A stretch of 64,000 bases of DNA from NCBI GenBank assembly GCA_004022145.1, contig RCNU01000016.1. One strand, given 5' to 3'. Position numbers and translations under genes: made by a program. A model generated the notes under the pieces. The model made no database searches. It saw nothing but the letters and a program-made list of their open reading frames with translations, and had not been told where the DNA came from. Shown here piece by piece: positions 21,836 to 64,000 of the stretch. The number at the start of each line of letters is the position of its first letter. Within the stretch, counting starts at the first letter, position 1. The stretch is from Paecilomyces variotii (Eukaryota).

Positions 21836-22732
21836 AATTAGAGCTAAATATAAAGGGTATTAAAATATTAAGTAAAAATAAGGGAGAAAGGAAAATTAGA
21901 AGCTAAGATTAAAGCTAAAGTTAAAGAAAGAAATAAAAAGTAATAAAAAAATAAATAAAATAGCTAAAGAAGATTACTACTATAAATAAAAAAAAATAAA
22001 TATATCTCTTAAATTAGTAAAAATAATAAATATAATATAGGGCAAAAATATATATTAATAATAAGAAAAAGGAAGAACTGCTAAATATAAAGAAGAGCTT
22101 AGTAAGTATAAAAGGAAAGTAAAAATTTAAAAAGAATAAAAAATTATTAAATAAAAACTATTTATTAAAAAATAGAAGAATTTCTTATTATTATTTTTAT
22201 TACTATTCCTTTAAAAAAATATAAAAAAAAATACTAATCTTTTTAGTATTAGTTAAAATAAAAGAACTTCTAGCTCCTTAATATTACTAGGTCTAGAGGT
22301 ATAAATAGCTTAAGCATTTAAAAACGCAAGACTACTAATAGTGCAGCTAATCTAGGTTATATTAGCTCTATAAATATTAATACCTAGAAATCTTAGGGTA
22401 CTATATTTTAAAGGGGATAATATTACTTATTACTTAAGGCTTTTTAAAAGGCTATATAAAGTAAATTAACTCCTAGAAGAAGAAAAAACTAAATAATTTA
22501 TAGACTATTATAGCCTATTAATATTATTATAGATAAATACTTAATCTAAATATAAAAAAAAGAACTACTTAAAACTAGCAGAGGTAATTAAATAAGAGTA
22601 TATTTACTATAATAAATATTAAAGAAAATATAATATCTAATAGCTAAAAAGGTTTAAAAATATAAAATATAATAGCTTTAAGGACTTAAAAAAATATAAT
22701 TAAGAATATTAAGCTATATTAGAAGCGCTAAT

Positions 22733-25700
22733 TGTAAGGAACGGGGGTTCCTAGGGGTTGCTGACGAATTACTCCGCCAGCGATTATAGCGAGAGGGGTA
22801 GCAGCTTCGCGCACCCAGCTCGAAGAAGAGTCTACCAGCGAGACGAAGGGTTAACTATTATAATGAAGGGTCTAACTAGCGTAGAAAAGGGTCCACGCCG
22901 GAGGGTTCTAGTAGTAAAGAGTCTATATGAGTAAGGAAATAGTAGGGTATATGTTATATTAGAACAGATCGCTGGCTTCTAGTAAGATAGCGATTTAGAG
23001 CCTGTTTATATTCTAAATCTTAAGCACTTCCTAGCTTTATCTTATATAAATCCTGAAAGTAGGGAGAGCGGGGTTTAATTGATTACCTCGGCATTATATT
23101 TAGATTTAGGGCTTTACTGCAGTCCTGCGAGCTTATACCTTAGTAGGAGGCTAGGGGTATAACAGTATCCCCCCTCTTTTTAAAGGCTCGTCCCCGAGCC
23201 GTTATAAAGTTATTATATTAAATATAAAATATAGCTTTATAGAGGTTTGTCGTATAGTAAATAAAGGAGCTTCTCGCTATCTTTACAATAAAGGGTTAAG
23301 AAGTTATATAAGCTGGGAGTGTTATTTATATAATATTATAAGGTTAAAATTCTAATCCCTAATAACTATCTTCCTACCTCTTACTATATATAGCTCTTAA
23401 TCCTAAATATATTTAAATAAAGATTTAGACATGTTTTTAAGGTTATAATAATGCTAACAGTATAGCAGTTTATTAAACTTAAGAAATTAGTTGTTTTTTT
23501 ATTAGTTTCTAGAGCTTCCTGCTCTAGGGGTAAGTTATCTTAATTAACTATATTAATATAAGCTAATTTAATTTAGATAATACCGCCCTAAATTTATTTT
23601 ATATCTAAGCAATATAAGAAAACTTCTTAAATAAGTATTCTAGTGCGAGATTTTATATATTATATGCTGATTTCTATAGTATTAATAGCCTGAGGATATT
23701 ATCTCCCCCTTTAGGGAGCTATCCCCTCCTCCTATCTTTAAGATAGAGGATATAGCTGCTGCTGTTGTGACGCAGTTAAATCTAGTTACTACTATAATAC
23801 CAGAAAATAATCTCTTAACTACCGCTAAGATATTAGGGACTCTAGCTATTATTGTAACGCTAGAGAGACTGCCTTCTTAGATAAGTATTATCTCTTTTAT
23901 AGCTATTAATAGGTTAATATCTCTATTTACCCCAGGTCCTGTAGAGGATCTATTGGCTGAGATAAATATTGCGCTAGAATTAAAGTATAGAAGGTTTATA
24001 CCTCTATTAAATTAGCCTTTTTCTATAGTCCTAGCTACTGTATAAGTGGGTTTATTTAATTTAATAGCAGCGCTAAAAAGCCTGCTAAAAAGAAAGAGGA
24101 CTTATCCTATTACTAGGCTAGCTACTATAGTTAAGCTAAGAATAACTCCCGCTTATGCTATAAAAAGACTCTAGAGATAAAGCGCGGGGCGTGAGGAGGT
24201 TATTAATATAGGGACCCAGACTGAACCAGCTGCTATTAAAATGCCAGTTAAGACTATTACTATTATTATTGCTAATATAGCAATAGAAAATAGCCCTACT
24301 ATCTCCTAGCTAGGTAAGGAGTTTCTTTTAATACCTTAAAAGATATATCTTTACTGTTTAAAAGGGCTAATTAAGAATCCGGCACTTTAGTATATCTATG
24401 CTAATACTAATATTAAGTATAATTACTGCAGTTGCAAGTATAAGCCCTATATTCTAGTCCTATTAGTTTATAAAAATAAGCTTACTTATCTATAGAGCCT
24501 TGGCTGAGAGGCCTATCTCTCAGATAATCACGGGTCTTTTAAAGAGGCCTATAGTAAGTACAAATCTTCTATAGAGGTATACCTGCGCAAAGCGCCTATT
24601 AAGGCGGATATAGATAAGCTTATATCTACTGTTCTATTAACCCTATCTTTATATAAATAGTCTATAATATAGCTCCAGTAAGAGTTGCTTAGGTTACTTT
24701 ATTTAATAATATTAGATCTGCAGCGCATGTGAGAAATTATATGTATTATTTATAATATTCCTCCTTTCTCTAATAAGGAGGAGAATAAATCTATGCTAAT
24801 AGGGTTCTATAACAGTAAAGTAGATAAATAGGGGGGATTAATCTTAGGCCTATATTTTTAGTTCCTGCCGGGGGTAGCTTAGTTAAAATAAATTTATTTC
24901 TAGATAGACTAGCTTCTTATATTCTTATTAAAACTCCTAAACCTCTATAAATAAATAAATAGAAAAAGAGTAATATAAATTTAATAATAAAATAATTAAG
25001 TAAAACCTATAAACCTAGTAGGAAAAAAGGGAAATTTTGCTAGTTCTATTAACTCCTTTTTCTAGAGCTTCTTAAAGCCCTTCTTAAAGAGGTCTTATCA
25101 ACAGCTTATATTATTACCTTAAATTCGGCTAATATATCTTAGGCATACTTAAGGTCCTTCTTAGACTACTATAAATTTTTATAATCTAGATAGCCCTTCT
25201 ATTTAATTAAATATTGCTTCTTCTCCCGTATTATCTATTTATCTAGAATAGCTTTAATCTCCTATTCTGGTTTATTATCTACTAAGATTAGGTCTAAATA
25301 CTTAGGTTTAGCCCTTAGTCTCTGATAGTAGAGCTCTAATAGGGAGATATAAAAGATTAGGTATATTCTGCTCAGGCTCTTCAGAAGCCTAAGCTAATAG
25401 GCTTAAGTTCTAATTCTCTCTATAACTTTATAAGGTCCTAAATATTTTATGTCTAGTTTCTTAATTGGTTAATCTGTCTTTAAGTTCTTTATTAAAAGGC
25501 AGACTTAGTCTCCTACCACATAAGATCTAGGCTTATACTTTTTATTATAATGCTTCTATTGCGCAGTAATAGCCTTTTAGAGAGATTCTTCTAATTAGGC
25601 GCGTATTTCAGCAAGCTCCTTCAATTAATTATTAACTGCCGGTATATCTATTCGCTTCCTAGAGTTATATTTATTCTAACTCCTAGGGTTAAATCTATAG

Positions 25701-28700
25701 ATAACGCGGAAGGGAGTTATACTTATAGAGGCATAGATTGAATTATTATATATAAACTCCACCATAGTTAATAAGGATGCCTAATTATCTTGCTTATAGT
25801 TTAAATAGACCCGGAGATAATACTTTAGCATCTAGTTCTACCTTTTAGTCTGGCTATTAGTCTAAGAGTAGAACGCAGTGCTTAGAAGTCTAATAATTTA
25901 AATACAGCGGTAAAGTTCTGTCCAATATTTACTAGTAAACAGCGCCCCCCTATCTAATATAATTAACTGTAGAGGTTTAAAGCGGTTATAAATATAATCT
26001 ATAATAAGGTCAGCTATCTTATCCGCCTTTAATATTTTATAGGTAAAGATATAAAGCGCTATTTTTAAATAGCGGTCTATAATTACTAATATTAAATTAT
26101 AGGTAACTTCTTATTTCTCTAACAGCGGCAGTCCTACTATAAAATCTATTAAAATACTCTACTATAGCTATGCTGGGATTAGCAGAGACTTTAGCTCTCT
26201 ATATAGCCTATATTATAGAGTTCAGTTTCTCTAGTAGATATTATATATAGATATATATTCTTGTATATCCTGTGCTATCTTAGGCTAATTAAATCTTCTT
26301 TAAAGCAGCTCTTTAGTTTTCTTAACACCTTAATATTCTATATAAAAATCGTTATAATATATTTAAAGGAGCTCTTACTTTATAGTAGATATATTTAGTA
26401 TAAATATAGTATTACCCTTTTATAGTAGTCCTTTGCTGTCTATTCTCTATATTATCTCTAAGCTATCTCTAGGAGTATATGCTTTTAGTTCCCTAGTTTT
26501 CTCTAAGATAAAGGCGTCCCTTACTTAAAGCTGCTTTAATATAAAAAATAGGCTAGGAGTTATAGCATCTTAAATAGACTCTTCCCTAATTACTCTAATA
26601 ACTAATATTCTTTATATTAAGTATTTTAGACTACCTATACCGCCCGCTTTAACAGGTTTATACTTTAGATTACTTTCCTATATATACTTATTCTAAGCTT
26701 TATACTAGAGCTTTTTCTAGAGAATTAGAAGTAATCCTATCTAGGATTTAGATTTAAATAGTTTAAAATCTGCCCTTCTAGACAGGGTATCTGCAATATT
26801 AAGCTATCCCGGCTTATATTTAATTTAAAAGTTATATACTGCTAATAGTTCTACCTACTGAGCTTATCTATTATTTAATATCTTTATAGTAAAGAAATAG
26901 CGCAAGTTTATATAATTACTCTGTACTTATATAGAGTATCTATTACCTTCTAAGTAGTAACGCTAATATTTAAAAGCATTAATAATAGCCAAGAGTTTTT
27001 AATTATAGACCTTATAATATGCCTCTATTTTAATAAACTTCTAGGCATAATATGCTATAGGATGCTAGTTCTTAGATATAGTTTATTAATCTGTCTGGGT
27101 TCTAATTCTTAGACTTATCTTTAACCCGGCGCCTAGAGCTATCTTATTACTATCTCCCTAAAAGAGTATAGCAGTAAGGGTAAATCCTAAAGTATTAATT
27201 GCTAATATTATTAGCTTCTCTAGATTAAAATACCTTAGCACTGGCAGAGTTATAAAAGCTAATTTTAGCTTATTAAATGCCTTCGCGGCTTCTCTAGTCT
27301 AAATAAATATCTTAGTTTTCTTCCTCCAGACGCTTCCTTTTAGCAGACTAGTTAGGGGAGCTATTTTTATAGAGTAGTTATAGATAAACCTTCTAAAGAA
27401 ACTAGCAAATCTTAGGAAGACTTAGACTTCCTTAAAGGATTTAGACTCCGGCTAATTTCTAATAGTTTCTATTCTGCTAGAATCTATTTCTATTTTATCT
27501 TTTCCTATAAAAAAACTAAGGAATTTAACTCTCTTCTTATAGAATTTATATTTAGATAACTTTATATATAATTTATGCTCTTATAGCCTCTTTAGGACCT
27601 ATATTATATATCTCTTATACTCCTTAATAGAATTAGAGAAAATTAAGATATTATCTAAATATACAATGTAATAAATATCTAATAACCCCTATAATGCCTA
27701 ATTAATATAGGCTTAAAAAGTAGCAGGCGCATTGCACAGGCTAAATAATATTACTAAGTATTTAAAGTATCTATAATAGGTTTAGAAGGCCGTCTTTTAT
27801 TTATCTCCTTAGCAGATTTAAATCTAATAATAAGTATCCCTAAGATTAAGCTTAATAAAGATCTTAGAGCTAACTAATCGGTTAAGCATTTTATTTACCC
27901 TAGGTAAAGGATATCTATTTTTTATGGTAATACTATTTAAAGCTCTATAGTTAATATAGAGTCTTAGTGTATTATCCGCCTTTAGAATAAATAGAACAGA
28001 TACCCCTATAAGACTAGTTAATAATTATATCTAACCCTTCTATTATATATCTTTAAGATATTTATGCAAAATATCTAATTCTTTAGCAGAGAGGTTATAA
28101 AATCTATTCTATAGAGGCGCCTTACTATCTAGAAGTTTAATCTTATGTTTACCTGTCTCGGTGGGTAATATGCTCGCATCCTTCTCTAAGAAGACCTTAG
28201 TATACTTTTTATATTCTAGAGGTAGGTCTTTAGGAGCAATGGGGTTAATTTAGTCCTTATAGAGCATATAGATTATCTCTCTTCTTACTATCTTAGAGAA
28301 TTATTAAGTGCTTTTAATCTTTACCTATAGCTAATATAGAATATAATATCTTTAAGTTATTAACTCCTAATCTACAATAGGATTTACAGTATATAACTAT
28401 AATTTCCCAAGGATAATACTTAATCTAGGCATTAAAATAATATAAAAGTATATCTTTACCTTCTCTATTATTTTTTCGGAGTTAGTAATATAAATCTCTG
28501 CTTTAAATAATCTATACTTCTGAATTTTATACCTATTAACAGATTTAAAGTTTATATACTGCTAGAAGTTTAAAGGAATTCTATAATATATAGCTATATC
28601 TAGGCTAATATAATAGCGGGCTGATCCAGAATTAATAAAGGCCTTATCTTTAAATATACTATTAGAAAGGTGCAGTTATACTAGAGTATATAAAGATTCT

Positions 28701-30253
28701 TCCTTTAGCTCGGACCCTTTATTATAAAAGGCTATAATAGTCTTAGGTTTTTTTTTCTTAGAAGGGTCTTTCTTTTTCAGGCATAATTTAGATCTCTATA
28801 TATAGCCTGTTTTATTATAATTAAAGCAGCAGCCTTCTTTTTTAAGCTAATCTTATTCTGCTGGCAATTTAAATTTTTTCTTCTTTTAGAGTTTAGTTAA
28901 CTCCGCATGTTAATTATTAGTCTCCTTCCTCTTTTATCTTAGGGGGGAGTCCTTTAGCGCGTTCTATATTAATCTACTTGCGTTTAGCGGAGTAAGTTAA
29001 CTTATAGTCTTATTCTTCTTCTGGTTCGTCTCCTAATTAGTGGCTAAAGACACTAATTGGTTAAGATTTATTAGGAGGTCTTAATAGTTTAATAACCCTA
29101 TTTAAACCTCGAGTCGGAGTTTCGCGTAAAAGATATAAGACTAGATAATTCTATTGTTATTAAACCCTTTACCCTAATTTAACTCTGCTTAAGCCTGCTT
29201 AAAATAGTATAGGAAGGCTTAGGCAGTTTAATTAGGATATTAAATTAAGGTATAAAAGCAATTTATTATATTCTATCCTTAATAATATAGATTATTAAGC
29301 AAATCCAGCAACTAACCTTTAAATCCTTCCTAGGTTAGTATCTAGAAGTTAGGATCCTCCTGCCAGTAGATCTAAGACTAAGCTAGTTCCTTATCTAGTA
29401 ACGCTGCGGTATAGGTAATCTTCTCGGCTTTATCTTTAAATGATAAAGCATTATAAGCTAAGTATTTATTTATATACTGGCACTACTAGTGATAGGTATT
29501 AAGCGTAGTAGCTTTATACTTCTGCGGTTCTGGCAGCTTAAGCCTTAGCCGCTTACTAGTATAACTAGCGGTGAGAAGCTATAGGAGGTCTCTCTTTATT
29601 AACAGTTTATCTTCTGTTTAAGCTCGCTCTATCCCTAGGCCTGTTAGAGTATCTCCTGGGGTTTGTGAGCTAGCTTCAGCAATTGGTTATTGCGAGCTAG
29701 GTTTAGCACTCTTTGAACCCTTTGAAGTATGCACTATAGGCTAAGCGCTAGAACCCTCGTCCTCTGAGTCATGGGGTATATCGGTACTGCTACTTATATC
29801 GCTAGGGCGAGCGATCCGAACTATAAGGAATGGGGGTTCCTGGGGGTTACTGACAAATTATTCTGCCAGCAATTATAGCGAGAGGGGTAGCAGCTTTATA
29901 TATCTAGCTCGGAGAAGGGTCTACCGGCAAGATAAAGAGTTAACCATTGTGATAAAGGGTCTAACCGGTATAGAGAAGGGTTTATGCCGGAGGGTTCTAA
30001 TAGTAAAGAGTTTATATAAGTAAGGAAATAGTAGGGTATATATTATATTAGAACGGATTGCTGGCTTCTAGTAAGACAGTAATTTAGAGCCTGTTTATAT
30101 TCTAAATCTTAAGCACTTCCTAGCTTTATCTTATATAAATCCTAAAAGCGGGGAGAGCGGGGTTTAACTAATTACCTCGGCATTATGTTCAGATTTAGGG
30201 CTTCGCTGCAGTCCTGCGAGCTCATGCCCTAGCGGGGGGCTAGGGGCATGATA
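22733..30253 (-). mobile_element. Chromovirus (Ty3/Gypsy) family B, copy B1, inserted in A1 gag
   Basis: 432-bp LTRs 22733-23164 and 29822-30253; 5-bp TSD CTAAT; reverse PPT at 23165-23180. On the minus strand: gag from ~29797, CCHC knuckle ~28780-28830, protease DSGS ~28625, RT CNAPATFQ and YLDD ~27650-27745, chromodomain EWEIEAIL...QYLIKWKGYP..ENSW ~25135-25275. Confidence 0.95.
23430..24831 (+). pseudogene. Spliced antisense accessory gene of B1 encoding a ~400-aa protein with a Cys6 motif
   Basis: Intron-like 23530-23576 (GTAAGT..GCTAAT..TAG) and 23631-23679 (ATAAGT, read as a RIP-mutated GTAAGT donor..CTGAT..TAG). An 18-codon exon splices in frame to one continuous frame 23680-24831 with de-RIP C-x2-C-x11-C-x8-C-x2-C-x6-C at ~24346-24450. 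Confidence 0.65.
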
Positions 30254-33200
30254 CTAATAACTTTAAATAAGTTAAACTAATACTTATAGGGAGTTTAATA
30301 TCTTTAAAAACTTTTAAAGAAGCTTAAGCAGCAAATAGCTTAGGAGTTAAATATAGACTACTATATTTTATCTACTATTAAATATATTAATTTCTATAAG
30401 AAGATAATAGATAGAGTAAGAATAATTAAAACCTTTTACTATCTTAATAATAATAAATTAAAGAAAGATTAAGATATAATAGCTTTAATAAAGGAGAAAG
30501 TAACTAAAGAAGATAATATATAATTTCTTATTAAATTTAATAAAACCTATTTAAATAAAAATAAGAATAAGACTAAATAATAAAATATTAAAGTAAAGTT
30601 AATAAAGCAGTTATAGATTAATTAGTTAATAAAAGAGTTTAAAAAGTTAAAACTATATAATATATAGTATATAGAGAGGCCTAATAATAATATATCTAAT
30701 ATTAGCATAAATATATAAGCTAAGGCGCCTTTAAGATTTAACCTAATTAAAGGATTTAGAATACTTCTAAACTTATATAACTTCTACTAAGCTCCTAATT
30801 ATATTTAATCTTATTACTTAGATTTAAAAAGCCTCTTAAATTAAAAGCTTATCTATTAAGAAAAAAACTATAAACTTTACTTTAAGCTAAAAAGATAGAA
30901 TAAAGAAGTTATTTATCTTATATAGGAGAATATATTATAAAAGGAGATTATTAAACAGAGACTAAAGAAAGAGTAAAGAAATATTAGCTTAATTAGGTAT
31001 AATATCTAGTCAATTATATTAGGATAGCCTAAGGATAACTTAAGCTCTAAGGAAGAAGCTGGGGATATTATAGAAAATTATTACTCTATTAATATAATAA
31101 GATTAGATAAGTCTTAAGGAGTAAAAAAAAGGTAAAGCAGGACTAAATAACTATATAAAGAAAAATTACAAAAAATAATTAAATAGGAATAGAGATTTTC
31201 TTTAGTTAAGATAAACTAATTTAGCAATTATTAGTCTTTAAGCATAATTAAAAAAGTAAAGATAATTAAAAAAGAAATAAAGGATACGCCTAAGCAGAAT
31301 AAGAATAAAAAGATTGTTAAAATAAAAGAAAAACAGAAATTAAAGAGATTTAAAGTTATAGATAAGCTAAAAAGGACTATTAATATAATAGAGGTTATAA
31401 ACTAGATATTAAATACTAGAGTTTAGATATTAATTTAAGACCTTATTAGTCTATTTCTTAATTTATATAAGGCCTTATTTACCTTATAACTGTAGCAGAT
31501 AATAATAAAGGCAATATTTTATAATATTAAAGGAGTATAGTTTAATACCTCTATATTAAATATAGAGTATATAGTAAATAGTATAAATTAATATACTTAT
31601 ATATCCTTATAACTTAAGCCTCTTAATAAAGATAAGGTACTATATGCGGCTATAACTCTAAAGTTATTAATTAGAATTAATAGTTATAAAGAGATATAAA
31701 ATATTATAGTAGATAGTAAAGCCGAAATTAATATAATATATAGAGATATAGTAAATTACTATAAATTTATTATAAGCTAGAAATTTAAAGATAATATAAT
31801 ATTAGCAAATAGTAAGTAAACCCTTTTTATAAATCTTTATAAAGAGGTACCTATATAAGTAAGATCTTTTTATTATAAGGTCTCTTTTTTTATAATAAAT
31901 AATAAGATTAACTATAATTATATTTTAGGACGGCCTTTTAAGCATTAAGTATATTTATAGTATATTACTCTATTAAATAAGATAGTAGAAAGTATAATTT
32001 ACTCTATAAACTAAAAGAATTAAGCTATTATTTAAGTATTTTTAATAGATAACTTAAGAAATAAGTTAAAAGAAGAGGTATTATATAATCTATTATCCCG
32101 GGCATAAGAGTTATTAAACTAAAGCTAGAAAAAAATAATAAATACTAGACTAAGAATAGAGAAGGCCTGCGGGAGCTATACTTAATAAATAATATTAGCT
32201 TTAGAATAAGCAAGAAAATTAAAAGCAAAGGGGTAGGGATATTTAAACCTATTAAATTAAATAAAGGAGTTAAAAAGTTATAGGAGTATAAACTATCTAG
32301 AAGATATAACCTTTTTACTATAAAAATAAAATATTCTATTAATATATAGTATAAGAAAAAATATAAAAAGATTTATCTAATAAATATATTAAACAGACTT
32401 ATAATAGCTTTAGGGGGATTATTAAAATAAAAAGAAATTATTAAAGAGCGCTATTATAAAAACCCTTAAAAAAATATAAAAAAAATATATAGAGGATTTA
32501 CTAAATATATCTAGCTAAAGATATTAAATATTAAGAAAGGAATAAGATTAATACTAGACTGTCTGAAAAACCTTATTATAGATAATAATTTATAGCTAAG
32601 AGAGAAAGAACTATTAATAGAGGTACTTTTTATTTAAAAAGCAGTCCTTATCTAGATCTTTAAAAAGATTAGATAAATATATCCGGAAGTTATATCTTTA
32701 ATTATTATTCAGACTATAGATTATAAACTATAGTAAGTAAAAAGCTTCCTAGTACTAAAGGTACTCTATAATATAATATAAAAAATAGTAAAAGAGAGAA
32801 TAAATATAGGGATCCTTAAATATAGTTAAGGACCTTATTAAAATCTATAATTCTTAGTAAAAAAAAAGTAGTAAATATTAGCTAATTAATATAGCTATAA
32901 AAATTAATTAAGTAATAATATAAAATGCTAATCTGCCTCCTTTAGCTAATAAATTCTTAGAAAAGTTTAATAAAATACTAGTATTAATACTTATAGACTT
33001 ATTCTCTAAGTATAATTAATTAAAATTAGCTAAGGAATTGTGAGACTTAATAGCTTTCTATATACTAGAGATTAGTTTAGTTTATTAAACTAGATTATCT
33101 TAAAGATAAATAAATACAATATAGGAGTTTATATAAGAAGTTATAAGAATATTAATAAATAATATTTTTAATATCTGTAATATATTTCTAAATAATATAT

Positions 33201-39321: not shown

Positions 39322-42300
39322 ATACTAGTTATTACCTATATTATAGAGGGCCTTTAGGGTATAAAGATTAGCAACCTCTAGAATACTAAATAGCGGTTAC
39401 TTATTAAGTATATAATTAAGGTAAAGGCGGATATTATAAAAGCTAGTATAAAAATATTTATCTAGTATATCTAGACCTGCTAGTATAGCTAATATATTAG
39501 AGATAAACCTAGCAATTTTATAGGCAGATATAACTAGATCGAACTATTAACTACTACTATCTAGGGCAATAATATATACTTACGCATTTAACTAAAGGAA
39601 ATCTAAAGAGAGAATTCTTATAATATTTTTAGCGCGGCGAAATAATATATAAAATAGATTTAACTTATAAATACCGCAGTCTAATTATTTTATAATAACT
39701 ATAGCTTATTAATATAAGGTTAAATTATTTTAAGTATAGATCTTATAGGCGGAAGAAGAATTAAAGAAGTAAAGGCTAATATAAGTAGGGTTAGCACCTA
39801 TAAACAGAAGATATATATTAAAATATAATATAATAACGCAGGGCTTATATCTTACTAGCTAGAGGCCCTTAATAGTAGTATATAGTTCTATTAATCTAAA
39901 AGATATAATTTAACTTATTAAGGCCTAAATAGTTATCCTAGTTATAGCTAATAAAAGTAAATACTAAAGAATAGTTTAATTAGCAAATATAGAATTAAAA
40001 TAGCTTTAAATTAATATTATTTATACTAAAGTAATAATAAAGTTTAGTATTTAAAGAAGCTAGAATAAGGTCTAAATATATAGAGCCCTTTCTACAGCAT
40101 ATATTAAAAAATATATTATATAAAATTATAATCTTATAATGCTAATAAAGAGTACTATAAAAGGAATAAACCTAATTTATTTACCCTAGATCTAATATAT
40201 TCTATTCCCTAGTATAAGAAGAAAAGGCAATAGGAATATCTTATTTATGCTAATACTACTTATAGCAGGCACTATAATAATAATACTGTAATAGGGAGGA
40301 TTAATATAAAGAATATAATTAGTTAAGAGGTTATATACTTTTACTTAAAGTCTTTAAAAGATCTATAAGTAAAGCAGGAGAGAAAAGAGAGAATACCCTT
40401 TTAGTTATTCAAAATAAAATAATTAGCCTTTCCTTTTTATTATTATTTAGTATTAGTTTAGCATTAGATTATTATTAGTTTACTATATTAGTTTATAGCT
40501 AAAACTTCTCCTCTAGCTCTATTTTAAGCTTTAAAGCTAAATACCCTTCTCTTTCTTCTTAATACCTACTCACTTAAAGACTCTATATTAAGTCTTAATA
40601 TATCTTCCTACAATAAATTAGAGCTAAATGTAGGGAGTATTAAAATATTAAATAGAAATAAGGGAGAAAAGAGAACTAGAAGCTAAGGTTAAGACTAAAG
40701 CTAAAAAAAGGGATAAAAAATAATAAAAAGATAAGCAAAATAGCTAAGGAAGATTACTATTATAAATAAAAAAAGATAAATATATCTCTTAGATTAGCAA
40801 AGATAGTAAATATAATATAAAGTAAAAATGCGCATTAATAATAAGAGAAAGAAAAGACTACTAAATATAAAAAAGAGCTTAGTAAATATAAAAGAAAAGT
40901 AAAAATTTAGAAGGAATAGAAAATTACTAAGCAAGAATTATTTATTAAAAAGTAGAAGAATTTCTTATTATTATCTTTATTACTATTCCTTTAAAAAAAT
41001 ATAGAGAAAAGCACTAATCTTTTTAGCATTAGTTAAGATAAAAGAACTCCTAGCTCCTTAATATTGCTGGGTCTAAAGATATAAACAGCTTAAGCATTTA
41101 AAAATATAGGATTACTAATAGCGCAGCTAATCTAAGTTATATTAACTCTGCAGATACTAATATTTAAAAATCCTAGGGTATTATATTTTAAAGGAGATAA
41201 TATTACTTATTACCTAAGGCTTTTTAAAAGGTTATATAAGGTAAATTAACTCCTAAAAGAAGAAAAAACTAAATAGTTAATAGACTATTATAGCCTATTA
41301 GTATTATTATAAATAAGTATTTAACCTAAATATAAAGAAAAGAACTACTTAAAATTGGCAGAAGCGATTAAATAAAAATATACTTACTATAATAAGCACT
41401 AAAGGAAATATAATATCTAATAGCTAAAAAGGTTTAAAAATATAAAATATAATAGCTCTAAGGATTTAAGAGAATATAACTAAGAATATTAAGCTATATT
41501 AAAAGCACTAGTAACTTTAAGTAAGTTAAGTTAATACTTATAAAGAGTTTAATATTTTTAAAGACTTTTAAAGAAGCTTAAGCAATAAATAGTTTAAGAG
41601 TTAAATATAGACTATTATATTCTATCTATTATTAAATATACTAATTTCTATAAGAAGATAGTAAATAGGGTAAGAATAATTAAAACCCTTTACTACCTTA
41701 ATAATAGCGAACTAAAGAAAGATTAAGATATAGCAGCTTTAATAAAGGAGAAGGTAATTAAAGAAGATAATATATAACTTCTTATTAAACCTAATAGAAC
41801 CTACCCAGATAAGAATAAGAGTAAGACTAAATAATAGAGTATTAAAGTAAAGTTAATAAAGTAATTATAAATTAATTAATTAATAAAAAAGTTTAAGAAG
41901 TTAAAACTATATAATATATAATATATAGGAAGGCCTAATAGTAGCATGCCTAATACTAGCATAAATATATAAGCTAGGGCGCCTTTAAGATTTAACCCGA
42001 CTAGAAGATTTAAAATATCTCTAAACTTATATAATTTCTGCTAGGCTTTTAATTATATTTAATCCTATTACTTAGATTTAAAAAGCCTCCTAAATTAGAA
42101 GCTTATCTATTAAGGAAAAAACTATAAACTTTACTTTAAGCTAGAAGGATAGAATAGAGAAGTTATTTATCTTATATAGGGGAATATATTATAAAAGGAG
42201 ATTATTAAACAGAGACTAAAGGAAGAGTAAAGGAATATTAGCTTAATTAAGTATAATATCCAGTCAATTATACTGGGACAGCCTAAGGATAATTTAAGCT

Positions 42301-59158: not shown

Positions 59159-61893
59159 TATAATAGAGAGAATTAATATAAAGAATATAATTAGTTAAGA
59201 GGTTATATACTTTTGCTTAAAGTCTTTAAAAGGTCTATAAGTAAAGTAAGAGAGAAGGAAGAGAATATCCTTTCAGTTATTTAGAATAAAATAATTAGCC
59301 TTTCCTTTATATTATTATTTAGTATTAGTTCAGCATTAGATTATTATTAGTTTATTATATTAGTTTATAGTTAGAGCTTCTCCTCTAGCTCTACTCTAAG
59401 CTCCGAAGCTAAATACCTTTCTCTTTTTTCTTAATACCTACTCGCTTAAAGACTTTATGCTAAGTCTTAATATATCTTCCTACAATAATACTTACGCTAG
59501 TTCTTAAGAAGAGATATATAATATATATAATAGATTAAGTTAGATAAAGAGCTTAAATCTATATTTATACTTTATACCTATACCTATAATTAAGCCCTAT
59601 AATATTCTAACTAGCACTAGTAATAATTAGCATAAATACTATAAGATAGAGGTATTACTGCCTAGTATATATTATAGCTCTATAAGACCTATAAGGTTAC
59701 TAATAGTATAGGTATAGAATTAGCTAAGCAGCGACTAGTACAGTAATTAGCGCAGCAGTTTAAATACTTATTATATTTACTAGAAGTAGATATTTAATTA
59801 CTATAAGAAATATAATACTTATAATCTATAAATAGCTATAATATACTATTATAAATAGCTACTTAATAATCTATATACTTAATATATTAGTAAAGAATAG
59901 ATCTATAGATAGGCTCTATATATTACCTATAGTAAGTATTAGGGGCAAGCGCAAGCGTAAACGCGGAGATAAGTAAAGAAGCAAATATCTATAATAAATA
60001 CTAAAGACTTAAGATAAATATATACTGTAAAGGTACTGGTAGCTACTGTTAATATATAAAATAGCCTAGCGCTATAATAAATTCTAAAAAATTATAGCAT
60101 TATAAAGTAAAAGTAGAAATAAATTCTATAAGCGAAGTATTCCCTATAATAGAAGTAAGATATATATATATCTATAAAGTAAACTAGATATTAAGATAAT
60201 AGTTAGCACCTAATCCCTATAGTTAAAGAGGGTAATAGACTATAGTTATAGCAGTAAATAATACCCGGCATTTAAAAGAAGCTATTAGTAATACTAAATA
60301 GAGATATAAAGTATACAGTCGCAGAAGATTAGAAGAGTAGCATATAGCAGAGATAAAAAGTTAAAAATAAAAAGTATTTAGCGCGTGCTGCTAAAGGCAA
60401 TATAGAAAGTTTAAGTAAAAAAGCAGTTTTAATAAAGAATAGGAGCCTATGCGCAGGCGCGGGAAGCACCTAAAATAAAAGGTAGTATACCTAAGATAAT
60501 AAGCGGTTAGCTTAAAACTGCAAGCGGTATAGAATAGCAACAGCAGAACAGATATTAAACTATGCATTTTTAAGGAATCGCCTATATATATATATAATTA
60601 TTTTCTTATTTATTTTATTATTTTTTTTATTATACTATAATTTTAAAGATTTTAAATCTTTAAATAAATCTTTAAACTTATATTATAAACTATAGTAAAC
60701 TATAGCTTAAAGTAATTATATAAGCAGTTTAATTTAATTTAAAGAAAAGTTAAATTACTTATAGTAAGTTTTAATTTAAAGTAAAAAAACTATACTTAAA
60801 TTAAACTATACTTTAGCAGTTTAATTTAAAACTAAAAAAATTAAAATATTTATTAAGATTAAGTATTAAATAGTTAAAAAGAATAAGTTTAAATAAATTT
60901 CTTAGACTATTATATTAGCTTAAGTAAGTATAATACTTAAGAAAAGAGAATATTAGCTTATAGTATAGATATAAAGCTATATTATTAATATATATTTTTT
61001 AAGATAATTAAATAGTAAAAAGAGAAGCTTAAGAATAAATTCTTTTAAATCTTTAATTTAACTATAATAAGATTATAATAATTATATAACTTTTAATTTA
61101 ATTATAGTAAGAATATAATAATTATATAAAGTCTTAACTATTATTTTATAATACTCTTTTTTAATTTAAACTTATTATATTAATTAATTTTAACTAATTT
61201 AAAAATTTTAAGAAGTTTATCTTTAATAATAGCTTAATAAAGCTATTTACTATTATATTCTATATTTTAATAAACTTTATATTAATCTTATTTCTTTAAT
61301 ATAAGTCTTATATATAGTAATATATAATATTAATATATTTTAACCTTTTATAAGTATAAGTATCTTTAATTAATAATAGTAATACTTAATTATCTTTAAA
61401 GACTTTAACTAAAGAGCTTATAATAAAGGCTTACTTCTCTCTTATTATTAGTTTAAACTTATTTAAATTAATATAGTATTTATATATTATATCTCTTAAA
61501 AGAAGGGCTAACTATTAAAATTATTTTATAGTTTAATATATAGCTATATATTTTACTTCTATAGTTAAGGTTATAATAGATTTTTATTTTTTACTTAATT
61601 AGCTTATTAAGTAATTAGTTAAAATAAAAATATTCCTTAAGATTAATATTTAGTTAGACTTATTTATTATATAATCTAAATTTAAGTACTTAATAAGTTA
61701 TTAGTCTTTATTCGCATTAAACTTAAGATTAAAATATATACTTAATTAAAGGTATCTTATTAAAGACTTTAATACTTTAAAGTATCTTTTAAATAGATTT
61801 AATAAATATTAGCTTAATTTACTAACTATAAATATAATATTTAGTCTTATTAAAATTATTAAGTAAATAAGAATATTAATAATTCTTTAATAC

Positions 61894-62403
61894 TATAAGA
61901 AATAGAGGTTCTTAGAGGTTATTAATAAATTATTTTATTAGCGATTATAGTAAAAGAAGTAATAGCTTTATATACTTAGCTTAGAGAAGAGTTTATTAAT
62001 AAGATAAAGGGTTAACTATTATAATAAAGAGTCTAACTAATATAGAAAAAGGTTTATATTAAAGAGATTTAATAATAAAGAGTTTATATAAGTAAGAAAA
62101 TAATAGAGTATATATTATATTAAAATAAATTACTAGCTTTTAATAAAATAGTAATCTAGAGCTTATTTATATTTTAAACCTTAAGTATTTCTTAGCTTTA
62201 TTTTATATAAATTCTAAAAGCAGAGAATATAGGGTTTAATTAATTACCTTAATATTATATTTAGATTTAAGGCTTTACTATAGTTCTATAAGCTTATACC
62301 TTAATAAAGAGCTAGAGGTATAATAGTATTCTCTCTCTTTTTAAAGGCTTATTCTTAAGCTATTATAAAGTTATTATATTAAATATAAAGTATAGCTTTA
62401 TAG
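61894..62403 (-). mobile_element. Family B copy B2: 3' LTR (61894-62325) plus PPT-adjacent sequence, more heavily RIP-mutated than B1
   Basis: Aligns by eye with 22733-23242, same 432-bp LTR length; interrupted at 62404 by A3. Confidence 0.85.
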
Positions 62404-64000
62404 TATAGTAGGGAGAATTAGTATAAAGAATATAATTAGTTAAGAGATTATATGCTTTTACTTAAAGTCTTTAAAAGGTCTATAAATAAAATAAGAGAGG
62501 AGGAGGAGAATACCCTTTTAGTTATTTAGAATAAAATAATTAGCTTTTCCTTTCTATTATTATTCGGTATTAGTTTAATATTAGATTATTATTAGTTTAT
62601 TATATCAGTTTATAGCTAGAACTTCTTCTCTAGCTCTACTCTAAGCTCTAAAGTTAAATACCCTTCTCTTTCTTCTTAATACCTACTTGTTTAAAGACTC
62701 TATACTAAGTCTTAATATATCTTCTTATAACAAATTAGAGCTAAATATAGGGGGTATTAAAATATTAAATAAAAATAAGGGAGAAAGAAAAATTAGAAGC
62801 TAAGGTTAAGGCTAAAGCTAAAAAAAGGGGTAAAAAATAATAGAAAGATAAGTAAAATAGCTAAAAAAGATTACTATTATAAATAAAAAAAGATAAATAT
62901 ATTTCTTAGATTAGTAGAGATAGCAAATATAATATAGGGCAAAAATATATATTAATAATAAGAGAAAGAAAGGACTGCTAAATATAAGGAAGAGCTTAAT
63001 AAATATAAAAGAGAAGTAGAAATTTAGAAGAAATAAGAAATTATTAAGCAAGAACTATTTATTAAAAAATAGAAGAATTTCTTACTATTATCTTTATTAT
63101 TATTCCTTTAAAAAAATATAGAGAAAAGTATTAATCTTTTTAGTATTAGTTAAGATAGAAGGACTTTTAACTCTTTAATATTATTAGGTCTAGAGGTATA
63201 AACAGCTTAGGCATTTAAAAATATAGGATTATTAATAGCGCAGCTAATCTAGGTTATATTAGCTTTATAGATACTAATGCCTAAAAATCCTAGGGTATTA
63301 TATTTTAAAGAGAATAATATTACTTATTATCTAAGACTTTTTAAGAGGCTATATAAGGCAAATTAACTCTTAGAAAAAGAAAAAACTAAATGGTTTATAG
63401 ATTATTATAGCCTATTAATATTATTATAAATAAGTACTTAATCTAAATATAAAGAAAAGAATTATCTAAAATTAGTAAAAATAATTAAATAAGAGTATAT
63501 TTATTATAATAAGTACTAAAGAAAATATAATATCTAATAGCTAAAAAGGTTTAAAAATATAAAATATAATAGCTCTAAGAACTTAAAAGAGTATAATTAA
63601 GAATATTAAGCTATATTAAAAGCGCTAGTAACTTTAAATAAGTTAAGTCAATATTTATAGAAAGTTTAATATCTTTAAAGATTTTTAAAAAAGCTTAAAT
63701 AATAAATAGTTTAAGAGTTAAATATAGACTACTATACTTTATTTACTATTAAATATATTAATTTCTATAAGGAGATAATAGATAGAGTAAGAATAACTAA
63801 AACCCTTTACTACCTTAATAGCAATAAACTAGAGAAAGATTAAGATATAATAGCTTTAATAAAGGAGAAGGTAATTAAAGAAGATAATATATAACTTCTT
63901 ATTAAATTTAATAGAATTTACCTAAATAAGAATAAGAGTAGGACTAAATAATAAAGTATTAAAGTAAAGTTAATAAAATAATTATAGATTAATTAGTTAA
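62404..64000 (+). mobile_element. Family A copy A3 (5' LTR 62404-62732 plus gag), truncated by the window edge
   Basis: 329-bp LTR of the A2 type followed by the same leader and gag sequence as 40616 onward. Confidence 0.9.

Follow-up and report, generated by a model that had tools for sequence, protein, structure and literature searches.

Does a retrotransposon of Paecilomyces variotii carry an extra, intron-containing gene on the strand opposite its own gag-pol? The question arises at B1, a 7.5 kb Ty3/gypsy chromovirus that lies, nested and degraded by repeat-induced point mutation (RIP), on the minus strand at 22733-30253 of a 64,000-nucleotide stretch of contig RCNU01000016.1 (the window, to which all coordinates refer). 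The original prediction for this DNA had placed a spliced + strand gene in the roughly 1.9 kb between pol and the 3′ long terminal repeat (LTR) of B1. That gap is as described, running from the end of pol (25049-25106) to the LTR end at 23164, and within it we located an antisense gene at 23580-24831 on the + strand, opposite gag-pol. We consider it probable that a Paecilomyces Ty3/gypsy chromovirus carries here an accessory gene, set antisense in the interval bounded by the chromodomain at the end of pol on one side and by the polypurine tract and 3′ LTR on the other. Judged by its sequence, the gene has been killed by RIP in this copy. The protein family that it encodes is previously undescribed.

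We first consider the reading frame itself. Across 23689-24828 the + strand frame contains 14 stops in 380 codons, and the remaining five frames contain 20, 38, 43, 49 and 57. When this segment was shuffled with dinucleotides preserved, none of 2000 shuffles had as few as 14 stops, whether one frame was counted or the most open of the six (mean of 40 stops per single frame; minimum of best-of-six, 20). The predicted open frame is real. Using this frame, read through its stops, as a query, we performed phmmer against 1.84 billion representative proteins and found six relatives (E value 7e-36 to 1e-4), which together span query residues 1-183 and 206-365. The best of these, P0003 (E value 7e-36, 50% identity), matches residues 1-183; P0004 and P0005 are short fragments matching the same N-terminal half, and P0006, P0007 and P0008 match across residues 206-365. 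Names are attached to four of these proteins and to the cluster member P0009, in each case as a hypothetical protein from Paecilomyces variotii or P. lecythidis; the other two are assembly fragments. One natural, undamaged relative is a 243-residue protein of Paecilomyces lecythidis. Accessions among the relatives are KAL1854635.1, KAJ9271474.1 and KAJ9375828.1. We then performed tblastn of seven relatives onto the window: matches were confined to the + strand at 23580-24828, with none better than an E value of 0.28 elsewhere.

The differences between the window and these relatives have the character of RIP. A difference was counted as derivable by RIP if the window codon could be reached from a codon for the relative's residue through C>T or G>A changes alone. 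This held for 46 of 51 differences from P0009 (shuffled mean 11.8, maximum 20) and for 74 of 106 differences from P0003 (shuffled mean 20.5, maximum 32). All seven in-frame stops that align to P0003 fall on R or Q, and six of nine fall on R, Q or W when the more distant P0006 is used. RIP is described as active in Paecilomyces, and the same source reports mutated copies of a Tf2-type retrotransposon there, together with a P. variotii strain in which such an element is unmutated (PMC6300479); in the accessible part of that paper the term “antisense” does not occur.

The relatives also define the structure of the gene. The ancestral frame comprises 397 codons, with one 58-nt intron after codon 17. 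Exon 1 (23580-23630, + strand) has 17 codons, aligns to residues 1-17 of P0009, carries two RIP-made stops and has ATA in place of the start ATG; nine of its residues are identical to P0009, and all eight differences are derivable by C>T or G>A. Exon 2 (23689-24831, + strand) has 380 codons, 14 RIP-made in-frame stops and a terminal TAG at 24829-24831, exactly where P0006 and P0007 also end. By tblastn, residues 1-15 of P0009 match 23580-23624 and residues 18-134 match 23689-24039 in another frame, 58 not being a multiple of 3, and P0003 shows the same layout, with 23630 passing directly to 23689. Because homologous coding pieces of one continuous annotated protein thus lie 58 nt apart in different frames, we identify 23631-23688 (+ strand) as an intron that both P0009 and P0003 skip. 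It begins with ATAAGT (from GTAAGT), contains a branch-like TGCTGAT and ends with the AG at 23687-23688. In total, the damage to this copy amounts to 16 premature stops, the loss of the start ATG to ATA and the change of the 5′ splice site from GT to AT.

Parts of the exon and intron plan originally proposed needed revision. Its phase-keeping join across the second of two introns holds, with a first exon of 17 codons starting at 23580 rather than 18 codons, and a second exon of 380. The proposed 3′ end of that intron, 23679, would also keep phase; 23688 is more likely, since the AG at 23679 adds three codons, two of them stops, and sits about 7 nt from the branch. The proposed first intron (23530-23576, + strand, 47 nt; GTAAGT...CTAAT...TAG) ends 3 nt before the start codon at 23580, and so could be an intron of the 5′ untranslated region at most and not a coding intron. 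This unit is statistically unusual: in the 98 kb of strand that the RIP-mutated section of the window comprises, strict GTAAGT...CTRAY...YAG units number only six, this one among them, and 71 if RIP is tolerated at the first base; an untranslated-region intron at 23530-23576 is plausible. An upstream ATG at 23432 was rejected as the coding start, as five stops fall in the 33 codons before 23530. Downstream, the AATAAA runs noted after the frame are three signals on the + strand (24887, 24950 and 24986, within 24887-24991), in the gap of 220-275 bp that separates this gene's stop codon from the convergent stop of pol.

Next, we characterized the encoded protein. Its N-terminal half is Pro/Ala-rich in an undamaged relative, and the most conserved block of this half corresponds to 23881-23997 (+ strand), inside which lie most of the 22 columns that are invariant in five sequences. 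KRKR, resembling a nuclear localization signal and expected near 24085, was read from the sequence at 24088-24099 (+ strand) and is kept in P0003. The six-cysteine module occupies 24346-24450 (+ strand), with spacing X2, X11, X8, X2, X6. In the window its codons are 24346 TAT, 24355 TGT, 24391 TAT, 24418 TAT, 24427 TGC and 24448 TAT, four of the cysteines having been predicted from TAT; the undamaged relative P0007 matches this exactly, with six real cysteines at the aligned positions and the same spacing. P0006, 39% identical to P0007, has RIP-type Cys-to-Tyr changes at three of the six positions. Basic residues follow the second cysteine, and after the module a short linker leads to three helices predicted by AlphaFold2 (residues 132-150, 154-183 and 196-220; predicted local distance difference test (pLDDT) score of about 55-76). 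The C-terminus is acidic: relatives have PPFS followed by acidic residues, of which a remnant is seen in the window at 24760-24789 (+ strand). The start, stop, cysteines and acidic tail are common to relatives of just 28-39% identity. A word-based protein search with P0007 returned only itself and P0006, and a search with alignment A1 returned P0007 only, among 8000 scored candidates. The protein probably binds zinc.

To place the segment among other copies of the family, contigs from two strains of the same organism and from one food-fermentation metatranscriptome were placed on 22600-30400 at 80% likeness. The 3814, 2286 and 707 contigs placed covered 30 of 30 bins in all three cases, including the four bins of 23644-24687, where 7 to 15 distinct variant contigs were present per site among the sites listed. 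In X1, transitions account for 1999 of 2046 changed places, which is the signature of RIP. No single contig spans the whole region, and depth is not readable as copy number. We read these data as showing the segment in many diverged copies of the family, with no count implied; that it exists in this copy alone is very unlikely. Parts of the B1 repeat family also occur in metagenomes from groundwater, from grain and from food fermentation, and in a single metatranscriptome (X5, X10, X13, X16, X20), with X5, X10, X13 and X16 holding small shares of the sampled words. Related loci were not found in metagenome, viral or prokaryote genome contigs, none of which is fungal, so that this search is uninformative on range.

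Several observations weigh against an accessory gene kept by the element. At the level of sequence the protein family was found only in Paecilomyces among the 1.84 billion representatives, and the window has just one internal copy of B1. P0003 and P0009 are computational gene models that partly rest on the same splice signals, and the evidence for the intron is therefore not fully independent. P0003 is moreover a chimera: it shares its last ~50 residues with P0010, a P. variotii protein to which it is not otherwise related. An RNA-labelled run of the same organism (X21) gave four contigs, all in the LTR. In the metatranscriptome X20 the contigs that cover the gene are diverged and look unspliced, one of them (23648-24030) entering the intron without a splice; these may be DNA. 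Neither X21 nor X20 shows expression or its absence. Finally, over the first half of the segment one minus-strand frame contains no more stops than the + frame, five in 188 codons on each strand.

Some of these points would suit a passenger, that is, a host gene or piece of one captured in reverse orientation and not serving the element, which we regard as improbable. Because P0003 is chimeric, the two gene halves are separable, and they do behave as modules: P0007 is without the N-terminal block, and P0003 has the N-terminal half on a host-like tail. The range of a single genus fits a passenger as well, and introns suggest an origin in genomic DNA. P0003 (P. variotii, on five contigs) has an unmutated N-terminal half, annotated in several strains and fused to a coiled-coil tail; P0010, from another strain, carries this tail behind a different N-terminus, and a word-based protein search with P0003 returned only itself and P0010. 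By its sequence, P0003 could be a piece of the element that has become attached to a host gene, or a merged gene model. However, many diverged copies across strains cover the segment, much as they cover pol, and the start, stop, cysteines and acidic tail have been kept among the relatives despite their divergence. The Cys-to-Tyr changes in P0006 suggest that it, too, sat in repeated DNA. A captured passenger is also a rival on the origin of the gene more than on its present role, and to that extent overlaps with the accessory-gene explanation.

Far less probable is that the true gene is a third open reading frame (ORF) on the sense strand downstream of pol, env-like or other, with the + frame as its mirror. 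Besides its openness in the first half, the best minus-strand frame has 20 stops over all 380 codons, and its translation across 23689-24252, opposite the Pro/Ala/Thr-rich half, runs into hydrophobic stretches. In the second half, however, its stops number 15 in 192 codons, compared with nine for the + frame, and no minus frame in the gap that separates pol from the 3′ LTR has a Pfam match. It is the + strand on which two frames are joined by canonical splice signals, and the + frame that has a stop common to diverged relatives and a conserved CxxC...CxxC; we take the open minus-strand frame across 23689-24252 as probably a mirror effect of codon composition. That the segment is instead a separate insertion or a peculiarity of a single copy, outside the B1 family, would fit a window without a second internal copy, but is very hard to credit when contigs of other copies cover the LTR-to-pol stretch in three runs and none of the joints listed removes 23400-24900.

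We next describe the anatomy of B1. BLAST self-comparison of the window yielded a 426-bp repeat pair of 86.4% identity (22735-23160 and 29824-30249), which, with the ends read from the sequence, gives a 3′ LTR at 22733-23164 and a 5′ LTR at 29822-30253, both of 432 bp and on the minus strand. Also read from the sequence are a 5-bp target-site duplication, CTAAT (22728-22732 and 30254-30258), and a polypurine tract beside the 3′ LTR (23169-23181, minus strand). The RIP-degraded gag-pol frame (25049-29821, minus strand) has 107 stops in the 1449 codons counted, and one minus-strand frame encodes the Pfam domains RVT_1 (E value 8.5e-20), RT_RNaseH, Integrase_H2C2 (weak, E value 0.0028) and SH3_Tf2-1. 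A chromodomain lies at the end of pol (25118-25264, minus strand; PF00385, E value 1.3e-6, 28.7 bits against a cutoff of 25.1), a match obtained in the pol frame with TAG and TGA read as W. B1 thus has the paired LTRs, target-site duplication and polypurine tract of a chromovirus, and the order of reverse transcriptase, RNase H, integrase and then a C-terminal chromodomain.

The surroundings of B1 are themselves repetitive. The host repeat that flanks it (22000-22730 and 30254-30498) runs across the insertion, is RIP-mutated and belongs to a separate family, with at least two further copies in the window (40780-41752 and 62897-63869; 88-89% identical). The insertion site, CTAAT at either end of B1, is CTAGT in the host-repeat copy at ~41507. 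A segment at 61797-62403 is 73-76% identical to the B1 LTRs, has no adjoining B1 internal sequence, and may be a solo or related LTR. The GC content per kb of the window is 0.14-0.39 from ~15 kb onward and ~0.5 before; within B1 it reaches 0.39 at 29001-30000 (gag end and 5′ LTR) and is 0.28-0.32 in the remainder.

What kind of protein might this be? The original prediction proposed a Zn2Cys6-like (Gal4-type, PF00172) fold, an identity for which the analysis gave no support. The published zinc-cluster motif is CysX2CysX6CysX5-16CysX2CysX6-8Cys (PMC2447501). Like it, the module has two CxxC pairs and two single cysteines, and its X8, X2 and X6 spacings lie within the published range, but in both P0007 and the window 11 residues, not six, separate the second and third cysteines. 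Basic residues after the second cysteine, a short linker, predicted helices and an acidic C-terminus are further similarities to Zn2Cys6 factors; in contrast to these, the family is small (243-397 aa) and without the fungal transcription-factor middle domain.

Searches by profile and by structure gave no Zn2Cys6 match above their thresholds. P0006, P0007 and P0008 match no Pfam family at E values up to 10, PF00172 and PF12511 included, and a sequence profile found no match in the PDB. Matches of the window protein to MIT and Transposase_21 were dismissed (E value 0.05, far under the cutoffs). The AlphaFold2 model, built on only four sequences, has a mean pLDDT of 46 and falls below 50 across residues 94-127, the cysteine region; Foldseek with this poor model returned nothing at E values up to 0.001 (best hit, 0.69), a result that carries no weight. 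In the ESM Atlas, the nearest neighbors are clusters of Ascomycota proteins with 52-157 members each (feature score 0.91-0.92; template modeling (TM) score 0.59-0.60 over residues 84-185). Among ten Atlas structure rows for residues 84-185 of P0007, seven are Zn(2)-C6 clusters at TM scores of 0.37-0.43, all under the tool's bar, and in two of these seven the aligned part is PF00172. A more distant Atlas neighbor (score 0.75-0.79, where chance hits are not rare) is a cluster with DUF3716 (PF12511) in 28% of its members. DUF3716 occurs in proteins of REP9, a class II transposon of Zymoseptoria tritici (PMC8232023), and proteins with this domain are likewise small, transposon-carried Ascomycota proteins of unknown function, though the family described here does not match it in Pfam. 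On this evidence we do not file the protein under Zn2Cys6. That it nevertheless works like a small zinc-cluster regulator is the leading functional guess, which we hold tentatively.

Extra genes are rare in LTR retrotransposons, and to our knowledge no antisense extra gene among them has a known function. The original prediction knew of no characterized fungal case of such a gene; one does exist. It is brtn, an antisense gene found in the Boty-like elements of Botrytis cinerea (Zhao et al. 2011, Virology 417:248; PMC8365987, PMC7264820), which is described from Boty elements of Botrytis and Sclerotinia and whose function is given as unknown (PMC7264820, PMC8365987, PMC4227169). As described in these sources, Boty is, like B1, a fungal Ty3/gypsy element with a chromodomain, and its extra gene, too, is placed downstream of pol and before the 3′ LTR, in antisense; the likeness is one of position and orientation. 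Our phmmer search with the window protein returned nothing named from Botrytis or Sclerotinia, only Paecilomyces proteins and assembly fragments. According to the accessible part of PMC8365987, brtn is missing from the current B05.10 annotation, and it is therefore possibly absent from protein libraries.

Plants provide the other precedent. In Grande1, RIRE2, Retand and PvRetro13, antisense ORFs occupy the interval from pol to the 3′ LTR, in most copies and with unknown function (PMC7264820). These are alike in position and orientation, but belong to the non-chromovirus Tat/Retand lineages and showed no sequence relation to the window protein by phmmer; they are not known to have been reported with a six-cysteine module. 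In the fungal literature on retrotransposon-borne zinc-cluster or antisense genes we found only brtn and an unnamed “add. ORF” (PMC2864245, figure legend), the latter from a survey of fungal chromoviruses in which, as far as its accessible part goes, additional ORFs of unknown function are mentioned only in that legend. The arrangement is thus already known, from plants and Botrytis; the protein itself is new.

How could such a gene operate? Transcription would run convergent to pol, from a promoter in the ~420 bp beside the 3′ LTR or inside it, and the AATAAA signals would end the transcript before it reached the stop of pol. Introns would outlast retrotransposition, as the genomic RNA is the opposite strand and would have no splice sites there. 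The product would consist of a basic N-terminus, a Pro/Ala-rich region with its conserved block, KRKR, the six-cysteine module, three helices and an acidic tail. Possibly, it is a nuclear, zinc-binding and probably DNA-binding regulator of the element's own expression or of host silencing, a suggestion that we put forward as less than even. More speculative, and in our estimate unlikely, is the generalization that some Eurotiales chromoviruses carry a small Gal4-like nuclear activator, a DNA-binding protein of zinc-cluster type with an acidic activation tail, expressed from an intron-bearing antisense gene beside the 3′ LTR and acting on the LTR or against host silencing. Of the original interpretation, an antisense, intron-bearing chromovirus gene stands, while Zn2Cys6 membership is not supported and action in the nucleus, as a transactivator or against silencing, is kept only as a conditional suggestion.

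For Paecilomyces and its chromoviruses, this gene offers a clear case of intron persistence in a retroelement, the intron lying on the strand that is never used as genomic RNA. It also illustrates that RIP-mutated DNA, which gene finders skip, can still be read, as the cysteines inferred from TAT codons were right at four of four positions. The six conserved cysteines, basic patch and acidic tail make up a concrete biochemical hypothesis, and natural undamaged relatives exist for experiments. If the Gal4-like activator proves true, it would be a retrotransposon counterpart of retroviral transactivators, and its neighbors in the Atlas, the Ascomycota “hypothetical protein” clusters, would represent a branch of zinc-cluster proteins that is widespread, carried by transposons and so far overlooked.

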